A stretch of DNA of 64,000 nt. Source: a virus. Its lineage: Duplodnaviria; Caudoviricetes. A model generated the notes under the pieces. That model saw nothing but the letters and a program-made list of their open reading frames with translations, was not told where the DNA came from and did no database searches. Each line of letters opens with the position of its first letter. Position 1 is the first letter of the stretch. Below are positions 17,391-59,315 of this stretch, one piece after another. The position numbers were made by a program, and so were the translations under genes. The DNA is taken from the IMG/VR virus record IMGVR_UViG_3300037067_013378, positions 71,614 to 135,613 of that record. One strand, given 5' to 3'.

Positions 17391-18719
17391 ATGAACTACC
17401 ACTAAACTAATGATTTAGTAGTTTCAGGTTTCATAGACTCGTCTACTGACAACGCCTCCACCTGTTTTTGTTTAATGTCCGACTCAATTCCTGAACCAGA
17501 CAATATTTTTAGACCTTGTTTTAAAATATTTTTACTTGCGTTAAAATCTCTATCATGATTTTCTCCACAAGAAGGACAAATCCATTCTCTAATGTTTAAA
17601 TTTAAATCTTGGTAAATCCATCCACAATTAGAACACATTTTTGATGAAGGAAAATATCTATCTATTTTAATAAAATGTTTATCGTTCCATTCACATTTAT
17701 ATTCCAGTTGTCTATAAAATTCACCCAAACTAACATCAGAAAATGATTGAGCTAAACTATGATTTTTCATCATATTTTTTACTGATAAATCTTCAACACA
17801 AATGATATCGTGGTTTTTGACTATTTCTGTGCTAATTTTATGTAGATAATCTTTTCTAATATTAGTTATTTTTTCATATATTATTGCAAGTTTTTTTCTT
17901 TGTTTATTTCTACTTGAACTATTTTTTACTTTTTTTGATAATTGTCTTTGTTTATGTTTTAATTTCTTTATATTATTTTTTAATGTTTTTATATTTTCAT
18001 AAATTTTTCCATCTGAAAGTATAGCTAAATCTTTTATACCAGTATCTATTCCTATTTTTGAACCAGTTTTTTCAAACTGTTCATGTTGAACTTCACAAGT
18101 TATTGATACATAATATTTTCCTGTTGTTGATTTAGATATCGTAGCAAATAATATTTTATCATTAATTTCTTTATATAAACATATTTTTATTCCTTCATTA
18201 AATTTTGGAATATACAATATATTATTTTTTATGGTTACAGATTGTGGTGTTTTAAATGACTGTCTATCATATTTTGATTTAAATTGTGGAAATTTAGTTT
18301 GTTTTCTAAAGAATTTCATATATGAAACATCTAAATTTCTTAGAGCAGACTGAAGTGATTGACTATTAATTTCTTTTAACCAAATAAAATTTTCATCCTT
18401 TTTTAACTGAGTTAAATCATTTGCATTATCATAATAATTAAGAGTTTTCTTATCTTCAATATAAGATTCTTTTCTTTTGTTTAAATAATGATTAAAAACA
18501 AATCTACAAGCACCGAAATGTTTAGACAACAATATTTCTTGTTCTTTTGTTGGATAAATTCTAAACTTAAATGATTTAAATATAGTTTTCATTATAACTA
18601 TATATTAAATTTTTTAAGTCTATTTTTACATTTTTTATACTTTTTTGTAGATTTTTTTTTAATTATTTTTAAATTATATTTGAAATTCATCCACGAAACT
18701 AAAGATTTCGTGGTTTTCT
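17391..18719 (-). mobile_element. IS200/IS605-family (IS1341-type, TnpB-only) insertion sequence
   Basis: Related subterminal hairpins CCACGAAA-N7-TTTCGTGG (18691-18713) and CCACTAAA-N7-TTTAGTAG (~17399-17421); right end TCAT, flanking TTGAA; no TSD. Confidence 0.8.
17402..18592 (-). CDS. tnpB: RNA-guided endonuclease TnpB
   Basis: HTH FKFRIYPT, RuvC GIDTG / VEDL / DRDFNA, zinc ribbon CSNCG..CPSCG. Confidence 0.95.
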   Translation of the reverse strand: MKTIFKSFKFRIYPTKEQEILLSKHFGACRFVFNHYLNKRKESYIEDKKTLNYYDNANDLTQLKKDENFIWLKEINSQSLQSALRNLDVSYMKFFRKQTKFPQFKSKYDRQSFKTPQSVTIKNNILYIPKFNEGIKICLYKEINDKILFATISKSTTGKYYVSITCEVQHEQFEKTGSKIGIDTGIKDLAILSDGKIYENIKTLKNNIKKLKHKQRQLSKKVKNSSSRNKQRKKLAIIYEKITNIRKDYLHKISTEIVKNHDIICVEDLSVKNMMKNHSLAQSFSDVSLGEFYRQLEYKCEWNDKHFIKIDRYFPSSKMCSNCGWIYQDLNLNIREWICPSCGENHDRDFNASKNILKQGLKILSGSGIESDIKQKQVEALSVDESMKPETTKSLV

Positions 18720-27253: not shown

Positions 27254-28531
27254 TTATTTTTTACTCTTATCATATGTTCTGGACTTAGCTTTGAAAGATA
27301 ATCTGTTAAAATTCGACCTACAAATTTTAGATTTCAATATATCATCTTTTGCTATAAAAACCCAACCTTCTGCTAATTGTGTTGGATTATTACCGAAAAC
27401 AGTGTAAAAATTATCTACATCTTTAAGTAACATTTCAGATGTTTCTGGTAATTTAAAATTATTATCAAGAATAGGAACTGTGTTTAACATCATTTCTTTA
27501 ATCATATCAATGAATTCATCATATGGGTAATAAAGAGATGTTTTAATATCAAAACTATTGTAAAAACAAATAGTTTTTTCTTTCAGTTTATAAATATTAC
27601 CTTGAATACCATCACCAACCAATTCACCTTGCAAAGAAAAATTAGGAATATTAAATTTAGAAGAAAATTCCCTCATTTTTTCTTCTACATTTAATTTTAT
27701 TGTAGTACTCCAATAATAGTTTACCAATTCATCATTCTCTGGTTTTTTGTAATTTATATTTCTACCACAAACACTAAACTCACCATTTTTTAAATTACAT
27801 GCGATGCTTGTACCTTCAAGTTTTTCGGTCTTATAATACAAGAATTGTTTTAATTTCTCATAATTTTTTTCCAAATTTTCAACTCTTTCTTCATCACTAA
27901 CCAAAATACCTACTTGTGCTAAATCACCAAGTACAATACCACCGTTAGAATTAACTTCAGGTGCTACATATTGAATAATACCTATAATATCAGTAACATC
28001 AAAATCTTCATCTAAAACTCTAACGTTTTTATTATATTCATTATTTGTTTGTTCAATAAAAACCTTATTGTTATTTGTAAATATTTTAGTGTTTTTATTA
28101 TTCAAAATTGATAATGGAAAACAAATACCTTGTGAAATCTGACCAAAAATTTCTCTTGTTTTAATACGAAATTTTCTTTCCCTTAAAAATTCAAATTCTG
28201 GTCTTGTGTTTTGTTTAGAAATTTCTTCCATTTCTTTCTTTATAGAAATTTTTTCTTCATCAACTTTTGATTTAGATAATTTCTTCTGTAATTCTTTCCA
28301 ACTCTGTTGTAATTCTTGTGATAAACCATCAGGCAAAACAGAATCAACTTCAACATATATACACAAATCACCAGCTTTAAACTCATTCTTCTTAACTACA
28401 ACATTCCAACCTCTAACTTTAGCTAATTCTAAATTATCAGAATCTTCAATTTGTGAAATATTTAAAATCTTTGCAACAGTTGCAAGTTTTCTGATATTTG
28501 CTGTTTCATTGATGTTTTGTACGTTTTCCAT
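27254..28531 (-). CDS. RNA ligase, DRB0094/Rnl2-related family
   Basis: RKLATV..GWNVVV..DSVLP N-domain; TEKLEGTS (motif I), QGELVG, EGWV, SFKAKS. Confidence 0.9.
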   Translation of the reverse strand: MENVQNINETANIRKLATVAKILNISQIEDSDNLELAKVRGWNVVVKKNEFKAGDLCIYVEVDSVLPDGLSQELQQSWKELQKKLSKSKVDEEKISIKKEMEEISKQNTRPEFEFLRERKFRIKTREIFGQISQGICFPLSILNNKNTKIFTNNNKVFIEQTNNEYNKNVRVLDEDFDVTDIIGIIQYVAPEVNSNGGIVLGDLAQVGILVSDEERVENLEKNYEKLKQFLYYKTEKLEGTSIACNLKNGEFSVCGRNINYKKPENDELVNYYWSTTIKLNVEEKMREFSSKFNIPNFSLQGELVGDGIQGNIYKLKEKTICFYNSFDIKTSLYYPYDEFIDMIKEMMLNTVPILDNNFKLPETSEMLLKDVDNFYTVFGNNPTQLAEGWVFIAKDDILKSKICRSNFNRLSFKAKSRTYDKSKK

Positions 28532-40830: not shown

Positions 40831-40856
40831 ATAAGAAAAAATTAAAAGAGATAAAG

Positions 40857-40889
40857 AAAATCCAGACCACAAAAAGGTCTGGATTTTTT
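40857..40889 (+). terminator. Attenuator terminator ahead of plus-strand tRNA array
   Basis: AAAATCCAGACC-ACAAAAA-GGTCTGGATTTT plus T-run. Confidence 0.88.
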
Positions 40890-41378: not shown

Positions 41379-42245
41379 ATGAATAATATTAATTGGGTTG
41401 AAGTTCAAAAATTTTATGATGATAATCATTTTTGGAAAGATGTTTTAAAAGAATTTAAGTTAAATAACGAAAAATTATGTAATGGTGTTAAATTAGGTTA
41501 TTTTAAAACAAGAAATAGAGAAGAATCATCAAAATTACATAACCAATTATATCCAAGAAAACATACAGAAGAAAGTAAAAAATTAATATCAGAAAAAAGA
41601 AAAAAATTTTTAATTGAAAATCCAGATAAAGTTCCATATTTAATGAATCATTATTCTAAAGGTGATAGTTATCCAGAAAAATATTTTGAAAATATTCTTA
41701 AAAAATATAATATTAATTATATTAAAAAATATAGAATTCACACATATGAATTAGATTTTGCAATTTTAGATAAGAAAATTGATATTGAAATTGATGGAGA
41801 ACAACATTATTTAGATAAAAGAATTATTGAATCTGATAAGAGAAGAAATATTTATTTAGAAAATGATGGCTGGGTTATATTAAGAATAAGATGGTCAGAT
41901 TATCAAAAATCAAATAAAGAAGAATATGTTAAAAATTTTATTAATTATTTAAACGATTTAACTTTAAATACACCCATATTTAATATAATTGAAAAAATTG
42001 ATTCACATAAAAATTATTGTGAATGTGGAAATATAAAATGGAAAAGTTCAAAAATTTGTTTATCTTGTTATAATAAAAAAAGAATGTTATATAAAAAACC
42101 ATCTTATGAACAATTACTTAATGATATAAAAGAAACAAATTATTCTGCAACAGGAAGAAAATATGGAGTTTCAGATAATTGTATTAGAAAATGGTTAAAA
42201 AAATATAAAACGGAATATAGCTCAGTTGGTAGAGCATCTGACTGA
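41379..42245 (+). CDS. DUF559/Vsr-like endonuclease with NUMOD3-like motif and C-terminal HTH
   Basis: YELDFA..IEIDGEQH..GWVILRIRW; GRKYGVSDNCIRKW. Confidence 0.85.
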   Translation: MNNINWVEVQKFYDDNHFWKDVLKEFKLNNEKLCNGVKLGYFKTRNREESSKLHNQLYPRKHTEESKKLISEKRKKFLIENPDKVPYLMNHYSKGDSYPEKYFENILKKYNINYIKKYRIHTYELDFAILDKKIDIEIDGEQHYLDKRIIESDKRRNIYLENDGWVILRIRWSDYQKSNKEEYVKNFINYLNDLTLNTPIFNIIEKIDSHKNYCECGNIKWKSSKICLSCYNKKRMLYKKPSYEQLLNDIKETNYSATGRKYGVSDNCIRKWLKKYKTEYSSVGRASD

Positions 42246-42283
42246 TATTCAGAAGGTCGATGGTTCAATTCCATCTATTCCGA
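42211..42283 (+). tRNA. tRNA-Ile(GAT)
   Basis: TCTGA-CT GAT AT-TCAGA. Confidence 0.92.
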
Positions 42284-42354
42284 CTAAATTAAAAAATATT
42301 TTTATAAAAATTTTTTAAATTCAAAAAATTATATTACATTTGTATTATAAAAAT

Positions 42355-42428
42355 GACCTCTTAGCTCAGTTGGTAGATGCACCACACTTTTAATGTGGGG
42401 GTCCTGGGTTCGAATCCCAGAGGGGTCA
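42355..42428 (+). tRNA. tRNA-Lys(TTT)
   Basis: CCACA-CT TTT AA-TGTGG. Confidence 0.92.
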
Positions 42429-42448
42429 CAAAAATTTTTAAGAATTGA

Positions 42449-42644
42449 AAAATGGGAAGTTGGCTTGGAAGCAGCCAGTAACCTTGGAAAAGTACAAACT
42501 TTTAAAGAGTGATTTGAAGCCTTATGTGATGAATATGAGTTCCGTATTATTAATCCCTAAAAGATTTGGGAAAATTACATTAAAAGTACCAAACACTAGA
42601 GGTTGTAATCCTTACAAATCTTTGGCGTAACAGCACACCATTTT
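42449..42644 (+). ncRNA. Structured RNA containing the 23S rRNA H43/H44 (uL11-binding) motif with two insertions
   Basis: GTTGGCTTGGAAGCAGCCA ... TTTAAAGAGT ... GCGTAACAGC-ACA closed by AAAATGG/CCATTTT. Confidence 0.75.
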
Positions 42645-42665
42645 ATTTTAAAAATTTTTGTAAGT

Positions 42666-42693
42666 CCTCTCACCTTATCGGTGAGAGGTTTTT
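42666..42693 (+). terminator. Intrinsic terminator inside the tRNA array
   Basis: CCTCTCACC/GGTGAGAGG plus TTTTT. Confidence 0.75.
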
Positions 42694-42703
42694 GCTATTG
42701 TAA

Positions 42704-42776
42704 GGGGGTGTAGTTTAACTGAAAAAAACCTGACACTACGGATGTCATAATGGGAGTTTGAATCTTCTCACCCTCA
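42704..42776 (+). tRNA. tRNA-Arg(ACG), A19/U56 variant
   Basis: TGACA-CT ACG GA-TGTCA. Confidence 0.85.
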
Positions 42777-42798
42777 CTAAAAAATAAAAAATTATATT

Positions 42799-43023
42799 AT
42801 GATGAACATTAAAGAAATTATCAAAGATAATAAAGTATATTTTCACTTTATTAGAGCAAATAATGCTTTTTATAAAATTTTATATAATGATATATGGTAT
42901 ATGTTTCCAGTTTCTTTATTAGAATTAGGAGATGCTACATTATTATCTGAAGATAAAGCTATATTTTTCATGAGGTATATTAGAAAAGCTTTAGAAAATA
43001 ATGAATTTGTTATAGCAACATAA
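42799..43023 (+). CDS. Hypothetical protein
   Basis: FPV..LGDATL..DKAIFFMRYIRK. Confidence 0.65.
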   Translation: MMNIKEIIKDNKVYFHFIRANNAFYKILYNDIWYMFPVSLLELGDATLLSEDKAIFFMRYIRKALENNEFVIAT

Positions 43024-43027
43024 ACAT

Positions 43028-43116
43028 GGAAGGTCGAAATGGACAGAGCTTATCCGTTTTGAAAACGGTGATGTCAGTGAGTAACTGATGTAGGAGTTGG
43101 ATTCTCCTACCTTCCG
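43028..43116 (+). tRNA. Atypical tRNA-Ser(TGA)
   Basis: Acceptor GGAAGGT/ACCTTCC-G, long variable arm, CCGT-TT TGA AA-ACGG; weak D-arm, TTGG T-loop. Confidence 0.7.
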
Positions 43117-56900: not shown

Positions 56901-59315
56901 ATGCTAAATTATTCTGAGAATTACAAAAAAATTATTGAGAACGCTAAGAGATCATCAGATGGTCTTGTTCAACCAGCGAATTTGCTTAAAGGTATCATGA
57001 TGACACCTGAAAGTACAGCTTATAGAGCTTTGGAATATTTAAATTTAAGACCAAATGTAGATTTACCTGATATTGGTGTGGAACTTCAGGAATCTTATAA
57101 AGTGACATCTTTTACTGAAAATATTCTTAAACAATCTGAACTTGAAGCAGTAAGACTGTCTTCTAAGGTGATTAAATCAGAACATCTTTTACTTGCAATA
57201 GTAAGGGCGAATTCCATAGAAAATATCAAGGTTGCTGATATTGAGATTGTTATTGACAAAATAACAAAAGAAGATTCTGATAATGGTTCTTTAACACCAG
57301 ATGGAAATGTTGACAGTAAGTCATCAAATAAGGGTAAACAGACCATTCTTGATAAATTTTGCATTAATTTGAATGATAAAGCAAAAGAAGGTAAACTTGA
57401 TCCCATTATTGGTAGAGAGAAAGAAATGCAAAGAATTGAACAAATTCTTTCAAGACGTAAAAAGAACAATCCTGTTCTTATTGGTGAAGCAGGTGTTGGA
57501 AAGACTGCTATTATTGAAGGTCTTGCACAAAGAATTGTTAATGGTGATGTTAATGAATATCTCATTGATAAGAAAATTCTTGTTATGGATATGAATTCAA
57601 TTGTAGCTGGAACTAAATTCAGAGGCGAATTTGAAGAAAGAATTAAGAAAATTATTGATGAAATCATCAAGGATAAAAATTTTATTGTTTATATTGATGA
57701 AATTCATACAATTGTTGGTGCTGGTTCTTCACAAGGTGCTTTGGATGCTGCTAATATTTTGAAACCTGCACTATCAAGAGGTGAATTTTCTTGTATTGGT
57801 TCAACAACCATGAAGGAATATCGTCAGATTGAAAAAGATGGTGCATTGGAAAGAAGATTTCAGAAGGTTATTATTAATGAACCTACAATGGATGAAACTA
57901 AGAAAATTCTTTATAGTTTGAAAAATAAATATGAAGATTTTCATGGTGTCGTTTATTCAGATGACGTTATGAGTGAGTTTTTATCTTTGTCAAATCGTTA
58001 TATGAACGAGAGAAAATTTCCTGATAAGGCCATAGATATTATGGATGAAGTTGGTTCTTATGCCAAAATCAGAAGGATTAAATCAGAAGAACTTCTTCAG
58101 AAAGAAAAGGAACTTGAAGATTTGAAAAATCAAAAAATCAAGTATGTTGAAGAACAATTGTTTGAAAAAGCTGCAGCCACAAAACAAAAAGAAAAAGTGG
58201 TTCAGAAAGAAGTTGATGAACTCATGGGTAAGCTTAAAGAAAATAAAATAGCTGTTACAAAAGAAGATGTTTTTGAAGTAACATCAGTTATGACTAATAT
58301 TCCATCAAAGAATATTACGGAAAACGAAATTGATAAGTTTATTCAACTTGAAAAGAACATCAAGTCTGTTTTTGTTGGACAAGATGAGTCTGTTGATAAG
58401 ATAACAAAAGCTCTTATTAGAAATAAGGCTGGTCTTGGTAATAGTAAAAAACCTATTGGTGTATTCTTGTTTTTAGGCCAAACTGGTGTTGGTAAAACTT
58501 ATTTGACTAAGTTGTTATCAAAGAATCTTTTCAATTCAGAAGATGATTATATTCGTGTTGATATGAGTGAATATATGGAAAAACAATCAGTTTCGAGATT
58601 GATTGGTGCATCACCTGGGTATGTGGGTTATGAAGAAGGTGGTCAGCTTACAGAAAAAGTAAGACGAAAACCGTATAGTATTATCCTTTTGGATGAGATT
58701 GAAAAAGCTCATGCAGATGTTTGGAATATTCTTCTTCAAATATTTGATGATGGTGTTCTAACTGATAGTCAAGGTAGGACAGTTAATTTCAAAAATACTG
58801 TTATTATCATGACTTCAAACATCGGAAGTAAAAAAGCTGTTGAATTTGGAACTTCAATTGGTTTTAATTCACAAGATAATGATAAATCACAATCTATTGT
58901 TGATAAAGAGTTGAAAAGTAAATTTTCACCTGAGTTTTTGAATAGGATTGATGATATCATTAAATTCAACTCTTTAACTGAAAAGGATGTTAAGGGTATT
59001 ATTGATATCGAATTGAACAATTTCTCAAAGTTGTTACTTGATACAAATGATGTTACCATAAACTTTTCAGAGTCTGTTAAAGATTTAATTTTCAAAAAGG
59101 GTTGGGATGCAAAAATGGGTGCAAGGCCGATTAAGAGAACTATTCAACATCTTGTTGAAGATGAAGTATCTTTGATGGTTTTGAGTAAGAAAGTTAACTC
59201 TGGTGATGAAATCAATTCTGAATGTAAAGATGGTGATAGTGTTATAACATTTACTATAGTGAACAAGAAGAAGGTAGAATTTAACAAAAAAAATTTAGGT
59301 GAAGTTGTTTTCTAA
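56901..59315 (+). CDS. clpC: ATP-dependent Clp protease ATPase subunit (ClpC-type)
   Basis: Two AAA modules GEAGVGKT / GQTGVGKT, UVR segment, IGF loop, GARP. Confidence 0.93.
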   Translation: MLNYSENYKKIIENAKRSSDGLVQPANLLKGIMMTPESTAYRALEYLNLRPNVDLPDIGVELQESYKVTSFTENILKQSELEAVRLSSKVIKSEHLLLAIVRANSIENIKVADIEIVIDKITKEDSDNGSLTPDGNVDSKSSNKGKQTILDKFCINLNDKAKEGKLDPIIGREKEMQRIEQILSRRKKNNPVLIGEAGVGKTAIIEGLAQRIVNGDVNEYLIDKKILVMDMNSIVAGTKFRGEFEERIKKIIDEIIKDKNFIVYIDEIHTIVGAGSSQGALDAANILKPALSRGEFSCIGSTTMKEYRQIEKDGALERRFQKVIINEPTMDETKKILYSLKNKYEDFHGVVYSDDVMSEFLSLSNRYMNERKFPDKAIDIMDEVGSYAKIRRIKSEELLQKEKELEDLKNQKIKYVEEQLFEKAAATKQKEKVVQKEVDELMGKLKENKIAVTKEDVFEVTSVMTNIPSKNITENEIDKFIQLEKNIKSVFVGQDESVDKITKALIRNKAGLGNSKKPIGVFLFLGQTGVGKTYLTKLLSKNLFNSEDDYIRVDMSEYMEKQSVSRLIGASPGYVGYEEGGQLTEKVRRKPYSIILLDEIEKAHADVWNILLQIFDDGVLTDSQGRTVNFKNTVIIMTSNIGSKKAVEFGTSIGFNSQDNDKSQSIVDKELKSKFSPEFLNRIDDIIKFNSLTEKDVKGIIDIELNNFSKLLLDTNDVTINFSESVKDLIFKKGWDAKMGARPIKRTIQHLVEDEVSLMVLSKKVNSGDEINSECKDGDSVITFTIVNKKKVEFNKKNLGEVVF

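Follow-up and report, generated by a model that had tools for sequence, protein, structure and literature searches.

The window (the whole stretch of DNA that was analysed, 64 kb) makes up the final part of a 135.6-kb virus record in IMG/VR (IMGVR_UViG_3300037067_013378; 21% G+C) of a phage from groundwater and landfill metagenomes. CheckV places the completeness of the 135.6-kb record at ~19%, so the phage may be several hundred kb in size. The window contains 25 tRNA genes together with phage-type genes for an RNA ligase (phrog_968; 27254-28531, - strand), an 804-aa Lon-like ATP-dependent protease (phrog_4871; 56901-59315, + strand), an endolysin-type peptidase and homing endonucleases, and it also encodes an IS200/IS605-type transposase-family protein (phrog_506; 17402-18592, - strand). 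A 288-aa HNH/homing-endonuclease-like ORF (41379-42245, + strand) lies within the tRNA array between tRNA-Phe and tRNA-Ile, its 3' end overlapping the start of tRNA-Ile, and a 14-bp perfect terminator-like hairpin (40855-40889), which could act as a terminator on either strand, is situated just upstream of a + strand tRNA block (Trp, His, Phe).

Between tRNA-Lys and tRNA-Arg of this array, the sequence reads as the first-pass annotation had stated, in the order GGGAAG-TTGGCTTGGAAGCAGCCA, 21 nt, CTTTTAAAGAGT, 110 nt closed by GATTTG/CAAATC, TTTG and GCGTAACAGC-ACA-CC. This had been proposed to be a phage RNA that follows positions ~1055-1104 of 23S rRNA, in the GTPase-associated centre (GAC). 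The GAC, positions 1051-1108 of the E. coli 23S rRNA, consists of the top of helix H42 with helices H43 and H44 and is the minimal uL11- and thiostrepton-binding domain. The equivalence is borne out by a covariance model (R1; the window is 1 of its 15 seed sequences), which aligns real 23S GACs end to end and sets the extent at ~1049-1110, so that the RNA reproduces the uL11 site (the top of H42, with H43 and H44) as a structure closed on itself. The features at the locus are as follows, with rRNA positions in 23S numbering:

42320-42348, + strand: weak promoter-like site TTCAAA-17-TATTAT, upstream of tRNA-Lys
42355-42429, + strand: tRNA-Lys(UUU), the upstream neighbour, whose 3' end is 19 nt before the RNA
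42449-42644, + strand: the whole GAC-mimic RNA, 196 nt (R1 match of 97.4 bits, model positions 1-144)
42449-42455 with 42638-42644, + strand: closing helix of 7 bp, AAAAUGG/CCAUUUU, equivalent to the top of H42 (1049-1055/1104-1110)
42457-42501, + strand: H43, the base of which pairs AAG (42457-42459) with CUU (42499-42501)
42478-42498, + strand: 21-nt extra segment after A1077 in H43, weakly structured, where other members carry a hairpin
42502-42506, + strand: UUAAA = 1082-1086, with the tertiary pair U1082:A1086
42507-42510, + strand: GAGU = G1087 A1088 G1089 U1090
42511-42620, + strand: inserted domain of 110 nt, branching from H44 between 1090 and 1091
42621-42624, + strand: UUUG linker, family-specific and not in rRNA
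42625-42634, + strand: H44 tip GC-GUAACA-GC = 1091-1100
42635-42637, + strand: A1101 C1102 A1103
42666-42693 (hairpin 42666-42688), + strand: intrinsic-terminator-like hairpin of 9 bp (6 G-C) followed by TTTTT, 22 nt after the RNA
42704-42777, + strand: tRNA-Arg(ACG), the downstream neighbour

The new closing helix and the downstream terminator that the first-pass annotation had described are thus both present, and terminator-like sites exceed expectation (4 found, 0.7 expected). Promoter-like matches are no commoner than in shuffles of this 21% GC DNA (25 compared with 18.9 +/- 4.8). The inserted domain is closed by GAUUUG/CAAAUC as claimed (42511-42516 with 42615-42620; first pair G-C), and its size, given earlier as ~115 nt, is corrected to 110 nt plus the conserved UUUG, 114 nt in all. 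No ORF of at least 30 aa lies on the strand opposite the element, and a 61-aa ORF with a TTG start (42445-42630, + strand) overlaps the RNA.

All pairs of the GAC three-way junction are found in the window, namely 1051-1055/1104-1108, those of H43 (1057-1059/1079-1081 and 1062-1064/1074-1076) and those of H44 (1087/1102 and 1091-1092/1099-1100). In H43, the basal helix is followed by U1060 and U1061 and then by the top helix GGC/GCC (42462-42464 with 42474-42476), which is capped by the loop UUGGAAGCA (42465-42473). The nucleotides that make the tertiary contacts are likewise present: U1082:A1086, U1060 and A1088 of the long-range pair, A1084, A1085, G1055-C1104 and C1072 with C1092-G1099. In the two-loop cleft pair A1067 and A1095, which is associated with thiostrepton and factors, A1095 is kept and position 1067 (42467) is a G. 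The window therefore holds one of the two cleft adenines only.

R1 finds the RNA as its sole match both in the window and in the whole 135.6-kb record (42449-42644, + strand; 97.4 bits, E ~6e-26). The same model aligns the 23S rRNA of Salmonella, Acinetobacter and Staphylococcus over model positions 1-144 with 53-65 bits, and in these alignments only the inserted helix and UUUG are deleted from the true 23S sequences; the numbering 1049-1110 comes from this computed alignment with real 23S rRNA. The phage RNA resembles the 23S GAC in having the same secondary structure, conserved nucleotides and tertiary partners and an H44 loop of the form GUAAYA. It differs in being a separate gene of ~90-440 nt located in phage tRNA arrays, in having a short closing helix of its own where the rRNA has H42, in carrying a domain and UUUG between 1090 and 1091, and in having a relaxed 1067-1070 loop (with G1067 in the window), and it has no L10 site (lower H42, Kt-42). 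The possibility that the segment is a fragment of a 23S gene was rejected, as it is not continuous with H41/H42 or H45 and is flanked by tRNA genes and an A/U-rich spacer, and cmscan gave no LSU rRNA match at the locus.

The homologue search among phages suggested by the first-pass annotation uncovered a large family. Over 300 related loci came to light through pattern scans and BLAST leads, almost all of them in phage DNA. BLAST of the whole element against isolated phages gave only short matches in unannotated spacers, which in Cronobacter phage GAP32, Aeromonas phage 4_4572 and Xanthomonas phage XacN1 share the architecture of the window RNA. Further isolate carriers are Pectobacterium phage CBB, Serratia phage BF, Erwinia pEa_SNUABM phages, Acinetobacter phage ME3, a Vibrio jumbo phage, Pseudomonas phages pf16, Milchi and Astolliot, and Ralstonia phage RSP15. 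A 17-nt pattern from the 3' half matched at least 120 viral contigs; of 124 loci, at least 108 also have the 5' half upstream, and these comprise 96 distinct sequences, 119-443 nt in length. A subtype scan re-found 6 of its 15 matches among the loci of the first scan, from which we estimate that the first scan caught roughly 40% of exact-pattern members. A second pattern, for the U1092-A1099 form, added at least 108 more contigs. Sampling by exact pattern biases the 3' half of these sequences towards the pattern and leaves the 5' half and the insert largely unbiased. R1 matches at least 90 other members at 42-115 bits, and the hosts of the family range from 21% to 65% GC.

In 596 Gb of prokaryote genomes the pattern occurs at 69 places, including 36 clear members (at least 60 bits), nearly all of them in MAG contigs. 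In the one isolate contig examined, from Flintibacter muris DSM 110149 (L193:1117-1298), the RNA is flanked by a tail-fibre gene and by the gene for a 730-aa polynucleotide kinase-phosphatase/RNA ligase fusion, after which follow several DNA methyltransferase genes; with these neighbours, the locus is taken to be a prophage or co-assembled phage DNA. Paenibacillus phage Pd_22F (MZ092003.1, ~83.9-84.0 kb; L131:1495-1556) has an ordinary 23S GAC segment that lacks an insert and is bordered by rRNA sequence. This segment lies within 1.7 kb of unannotated DNA close to the end of the record and seems to be host rDNA that entered the assembly rather than a member of the family.

The window copy has the GAC core, the insert helix with its covarying first pair, the UUUG linker and a purine at 1101 that can pair with U1090, which define the family, and it occurs in the family's usual setting, a virus record in which the RNA lies co-oriented within a tRNA array. 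Apart from its insert and the G at 1067, it is an ordinary member. It has no close relatives in the material searched: the pattern GTTGGCTTGGAAGCAGCCAG occurs in 0 viral contigs, the motifs of its insert have no near relative among ~330 loci, and BLAST of the 10-kb surroundings against isolated phages gave no match. Comparison of 42150-43050 with contigs of four landfill runs returned identical sequences or unrelated tRNA matches and hence no informative variation.

The conservation of structure was assessed by writing the structure from the rRNA equivalence and counting on an alignment of 31 sequences. Paired cells amount to 94.2%, compared with 71% in shuffles and 33-51% with slid partners; 15 of the 21 pairs have changes on both sides, and the covariation score is 0.607 against 0.156. 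All helices covary, and in the closing helix 6 of 7 pairs have compensatory changes. The AUG/CAU to AAG/CUU change at the base of H43, which the first-pass annotation had read as compensatory, is real, and across the family (n=31) pair 1058-1080 is UA in 12, AU in 9 and GC in 8 sequences. At the pair that opens the inserted helix, 19 of the 31 sequences have GC, 9 have AU and 3 have UA, and the tertiary pair 1082:1086 is UA in 19, CG in 9 and AU in 3, and so is paired in 100% of them. Outside the helices, G1059, U1060, A1084, A1085, G1087 and A1088 are invariant in 94 members, while G1055, G1089 and U1090 are each kept in 93 of 94, as is the first U of the linker, which lies outside the search pattern. 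The pair G1055-C1104 is invariant in the 31-sequence alignment. In the rRNA, the junction is held by A-minor triples in which A1085 docks on G1055-C1104 and A1084 on the neighbouring pair 1054-1105 (PMC1919483).

A second tertiary contact varies in a concerted manner. All 94 members with C1092-G1099 have C at position 1072, and 76 of the 81 with U1092-A1099 have U there, which indicates that the 1072/(1092-1099) triple switches as a unit, although kinship among members inflates these counts (the 81 members represent 69 distinct 5' halves, with many insert types). Each of the two forms, C/C-G and U/U-A, occurs in at least 100 phage contigs with many insert types, and phage ME3 carries the switch. 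This triple is reportedly a known feature of the GAC, described by Conn, Gutell and Draper in 1998. The loop 1065-1070 is variable, with 1067 being A in 81, G in 10, C in 2 and U in 1, 1068 being G in 75 and A in 19, and 1070 being A in 79 and G in 15 members; G1067 is commoner in the U/U-A form (32/81 compared with 10/94). Judged from these comparisons of sequence, the RNA keeps the tertiary fold of the GAC, and chance resemblance is excluded: this is a conserved, structured RNA gene. The first-pass claim that it is the structure rather than the rRNA context which is being kept holds for every helix, for 1082:1086, for the 1072/(1092-1099) triple and for the invariant A1084, A1085, U1060 and A1088.

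The family also departs from rRNA in sequence. It has U1090-A1101 where enterobacteria have A1090-U1101, with G1101 in pf16, although both search patterns demanded A at position 1101. With a purine at 1101 to pair with U1090, H44 can stay continuous and the insert can leave it as a side branch. Phage ME3 has AAG/CUU where the 23S rRNA of Acinetobacter has AGG/CCU, and pair 1082:1086 is A:U in Serratia phage BF but U:A in enterobacterial 23S; since both phages differ from host 23S at covarying positions, the RNA is not a recent copy of host rDNA.

The inserts range from ~40 to 370 nt and fall into several subtypes, with no motif common across subtypes and with subtype-specific motifs such as CACCCCGUAACUGGUAAGG and GGGGAAGGA...GACCCUUAGAG. 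The smallest members (91-107 nt) are almost pure GAC, and among these L012, L157 and L165 are compact, giving 91-nt matches in which little is added to the GAC core beyond a short hairpin at the site of the insert. The window insert shares CCGUA, AGUACCAAAC and CCUUA (the last just before the closing strand), in the same order, with the type found in GAP32, CBB and ME3, and is without the central GGGGAAG domain of that type. By itself the 110-nt insert folds no better than shuffles (z = -0.81), and the same applies to the 21-nt segment in H43 (-0.6 kcal/mol, with no stable hairpin), so no confident internal structure is assigned to either. The insertion site after A1077 (also seen in L010, L043, L067, L088, L094, L095, L117 and others) is used in 11 other correctly parsed members, mostly by stem-loops, and in several members the loop of this stem-loop has GAGCA or CAGCA. 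Comparison of the inserts with the complete Salmonella 23S rRNA gave only short, noise-level matches, and they are therefore not obviously derived from rRNA. Some relatives do carry a second rRNA-like element: a sarcin-ricin-like hairpin, [AG]GUAC-NNNA-GGAA, with covarying stems, is found in three 315-nt inserts (L040, L056 and L098; ~225-232 nt in) and also in L135/L141 (e.g. UAGUAC-GAGA-GGAA and close variants, AGUAC-GNRA-GGAA), and the motif occurs 0 times in 1.2 Mb of flanks. Such RNAs thus hold both rRNA halves of the factor-binding site. The window insert has no such hairpin.

Across the family, a tRNA gene lies within 300 nt in 48 of 97 distinct members and within 1 kb in 58 (many of the loci being short), neighbouring tRNAs are on the same strand in 564 of 565 cases, and the gap to the adjacent tRNA is usually 0-10 nt upstream and 3-17 nt downstream, as is the spacing within tRNA arrays. 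There is no preferred identity of the neighbouring tRNA, and all-against-all BLAST of 2,253 flanking ORFs revealed no conserved protein neighbour, the largest cluster covering 5 of 97 loci. Pfam analysis of the 150 nearest ORFs found no family with more than three matches; the most frequent was the CCA-adding enzyme (3/150), and there were single matches to RNA ligase, an RNA-repair HAD domain and RF-1-domain proteins. In XacN1 a 2'-5' RNA ligase gene stands beside the RNA. No uL11 gene is present in five complete carrier phages, and neither uL11 (PF00298) nor RelA/SpoT (PF04607) was found in the 135.6-kb record, which covers ~19% of its genome. With no conserved protein neighbour and no uL11 gene in the five complete carriers, the partner of the RNA has to be supplied by the host or encoded elsewhere in the phage. 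The terminator is not a feature of the family as a whole, as a terminator-like hairpin lies within 100 nt downstream in only 9 of 97 members.

The comparison with Rfam proposed by the first-pass annotation matched the GAC part to no described family. At gathering thresholds, Rfam 15 detected only tRNAs in the window and 20 related loci, and in E-value mode over 42300-42800 nothing covered the GAC part and the weak matches were judged spurious. One of them, to L10_leader (RF00557), scores 23.5 bits over 42571-42704 compared with a gathering score of 44; the identification was rejected because the score is far below gathering and the match is made by the A/U-rich spacer and the terminator hairpin only, and no rplJ lies downstream. 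The leaders for L10, L1, S8, S15 and L20 likewise imitate the sites of ribosomal proteins on rRNA. They are, however, partial mimics in the 5' UTR of the operon that they control, whereas the phage RNA is a near-complete copy of the domain, is encoded by phages, adjoins no ribosomal protein gene and is mostly flanked by tRNAs. It also resembles phage tRNA arrays and other mimic RNAs encoded by viruses or cells (tRNA-like RNAs, 6S RNA, phage pseudo-ToxI), being a structured phage RNA beside tRNAs that is probably excised by the enzymes which process these and plausibly acts by mimicry, but unlike in these the mimicked object is a functional centre of the large ribosomal subunit. We know of no described precedent for an RNA mimic of such a centre. 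The searchable literature yielded no description of a phage GAC mimic, and papers may exist beyond it. A survey of structured RNAs from IMG/VR, which is the same kind of data as ours, reported no rRNA-like candidate, and the family may hide among its 8,495 unnamed DNA-virus candidates (Fremin et al., 2023; PMC10690425). The phage GAC-mimic RNA family is apparently undescribed.

As to function, we propose that the RNA binds uL11 of the host away from the ribosome and during infection would serve as a stand-in or sink for the ribosomal site, and give this reading a probability of roughly 0.45. The protein uL11 recognises the folded 58-nt domain, and since the five complete carriers have no uL11 gene of their own, binding of host uL11 is the simplest reading of a conserved GAC fold. 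The RNA would be transcribed with the tRNA array, possibly from the weak promoter-like site through tRNA-Lys to the terminator; tRNA processing would release its 5' end and the terminator would set its 3' end, and it might accumulate as a stable RNA in the manner of a tRNA. Through the tertiary fold that is kept, it would then hold host uL11 away from ribosomes. One possible effect, and a speculative one, would be a lower occupancy of ribosomes by uL11 and hence less uL11-dependent activation of RelA. As uL11 is abundant and mostly bound to ribosomes, such a sink would need high levels of the RNA. In the ribosome, the loop 1067-1070 touches the N-domain of uL11, thiostrepton and EF-G, and the relaxation of this loop in the family, with G1067 in the window, argues against a strict mimic for factors or thiostrepton. 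Simple binding of uL11 leaves the invariant GU/UUUG junction and the large, diverse inserts unexplained, and the sarcin-ricin-like hairpin in some relatives points to factors rather than uL11.

A different and less probable role would be that of a decoy for attackers of the GAC, whereby a host defence effector, an interbacterial toxin or an antibiotic that recognises H43/H44 would be titrated away from the ribosomes on which the phage depends. A parallel idea is that phage tRNAs replace or out-compete the tRNAs hit by anticodon nucleases. By this analogy the location of the RNA in tRNA arrays would fit, as would the neighbouring genes for RNA repair or tRNA maturation (CCA-adding enzyme, 3/150; the RNA ligase and the RNA-repair HAD protein; the Pnkp-RNA ligase fusion of L193; the 2'-5' RNA ligase of XacN1), but these neighbours are few. 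The nucleotides G1093, U1094, A1095 and A1098 are kept, although all four were fixed by the search patterns. We know of no anti-phage system that targets the GAC, which speaks against this role; against a catalytic enzyme the RNA would have to be very abundant or very tightly binding, and with carriers whose hosts range from 21% to 65% GC the attacker would have to be very widespread. GAC-directed toxins do exist, however, for example Tre23, which ADP-ribosylates H44 at 1095-1098 (PMC8661411).

The long-insert relatives, in which both halves of the factor site are present, raise the prospect that the RNA is a platform for translational GTPases or RelA-type enzymes off the ribosome, where EF-G, EF-Tu, IF2 or RelA might be bound, sequestered or stimulated with or without uL11. 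EF-G is reported to bind isolated oligonucleotides of both domains (a finding attributed to Munishkin and Wool, 1997). We regard this reading as improbable, since the loop that contacts factors, 1067-1070, is the least conserved part of the core and has G1067 in the window, the window insert lacks the sarcin-ricin-like hairpin, and the L10/L12 site (lower H42, Kt-42) is missing.

The conservation of the junction nucleotides, which equals that of the core, and the subtypes of inserts with their own conserved motifs could also mean that the GAC fold is a mere folding module or handle, and that the function resides in the variable insert or in the invariant GU/UUUG three-way junction. This is somewhat more improbable still: the GAC core is the only part common to all members, the inserts extend over ~40 to 370 nt with no motif shared across subtypes, and the smallest members of 91-107 nt are almost pure GAC. 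The terminator 22 nt past the RNA and the weak cmscan match to L10_leader (23.5 bits) would suit a cis-acting attenuator that senses uL11, in which free uL11, once bound to the RNA, would alter termination at 42666-42693 and thereby determine how much transcription continues into tRNA-Arg, tRNA-Ser and tRNA-Val. We consider this very unlikely, given that a terminator-like hairpin follows within 100 nt in only 9 of 97 members, that no alternative pairing between the RNA and the terminator was seen, and that the L10_leader score is far below the gathering score of 44 and derives from the spacer and terminator hairpin only. Finally, the overlap with the 61-aa ORF (42445-42630) and the occurrence of plain 23S fragments in phage records (e.g. 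L131) might suggest a protein-coding stretch or functionless, captured host 23S rDNA, but both are contradicted by the covariation data, with hundreds of diverged members keeping their pairs through compensatory changes, sharing features foreign to rRNA (the insert, the UUUG linker and A1101, which is G in pf16 and was fixed as A by the patterns) and each having a closing helix of its own, and with insert lengths that vary regardless of reading frame, so that we give them almost no weight.

On a broader and tentative view, to which we give fewer chances than to uL11 binding, large phages may carry a portable piece of the ribosome, that is, the uL11/GTPase-centre RNA, in some cases with a copy of the sarcin-ricin loop, with which they would, off the ribosome, capture uL11 and factors of translation or the stringent response, or intercept immune effectors aimed at this site. 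Were this true, it would give phages direct control over the cycling of host translation factors or over ppGpp signalling.

The interest of the finding rests on the family rather than on the window copy. Few functional sites of the ribosome are as conserved and as well studied as the GAC, and a free-standing, independently evolving viral copy of it in hundreds of phage lineages would represent a new class of viral mimic RNA. The family also supplies hundreds of naturally occurring sequence variants of a classic RNA tertiary fold, in which C/C-G and U/U-A triples recur. Direct tests are possible in cultured carriers (GAP32, CBB, XacN1, ME3, pf16, RSP15 and Aeromonas phage 4_4572), and the ~91-nt members L012, L157 and L165 would be useful minimal constructs for binding tests. 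If the RNA binds uL11 or factors, this would be a new means for phages to adjust translation, the stringent response or defence.
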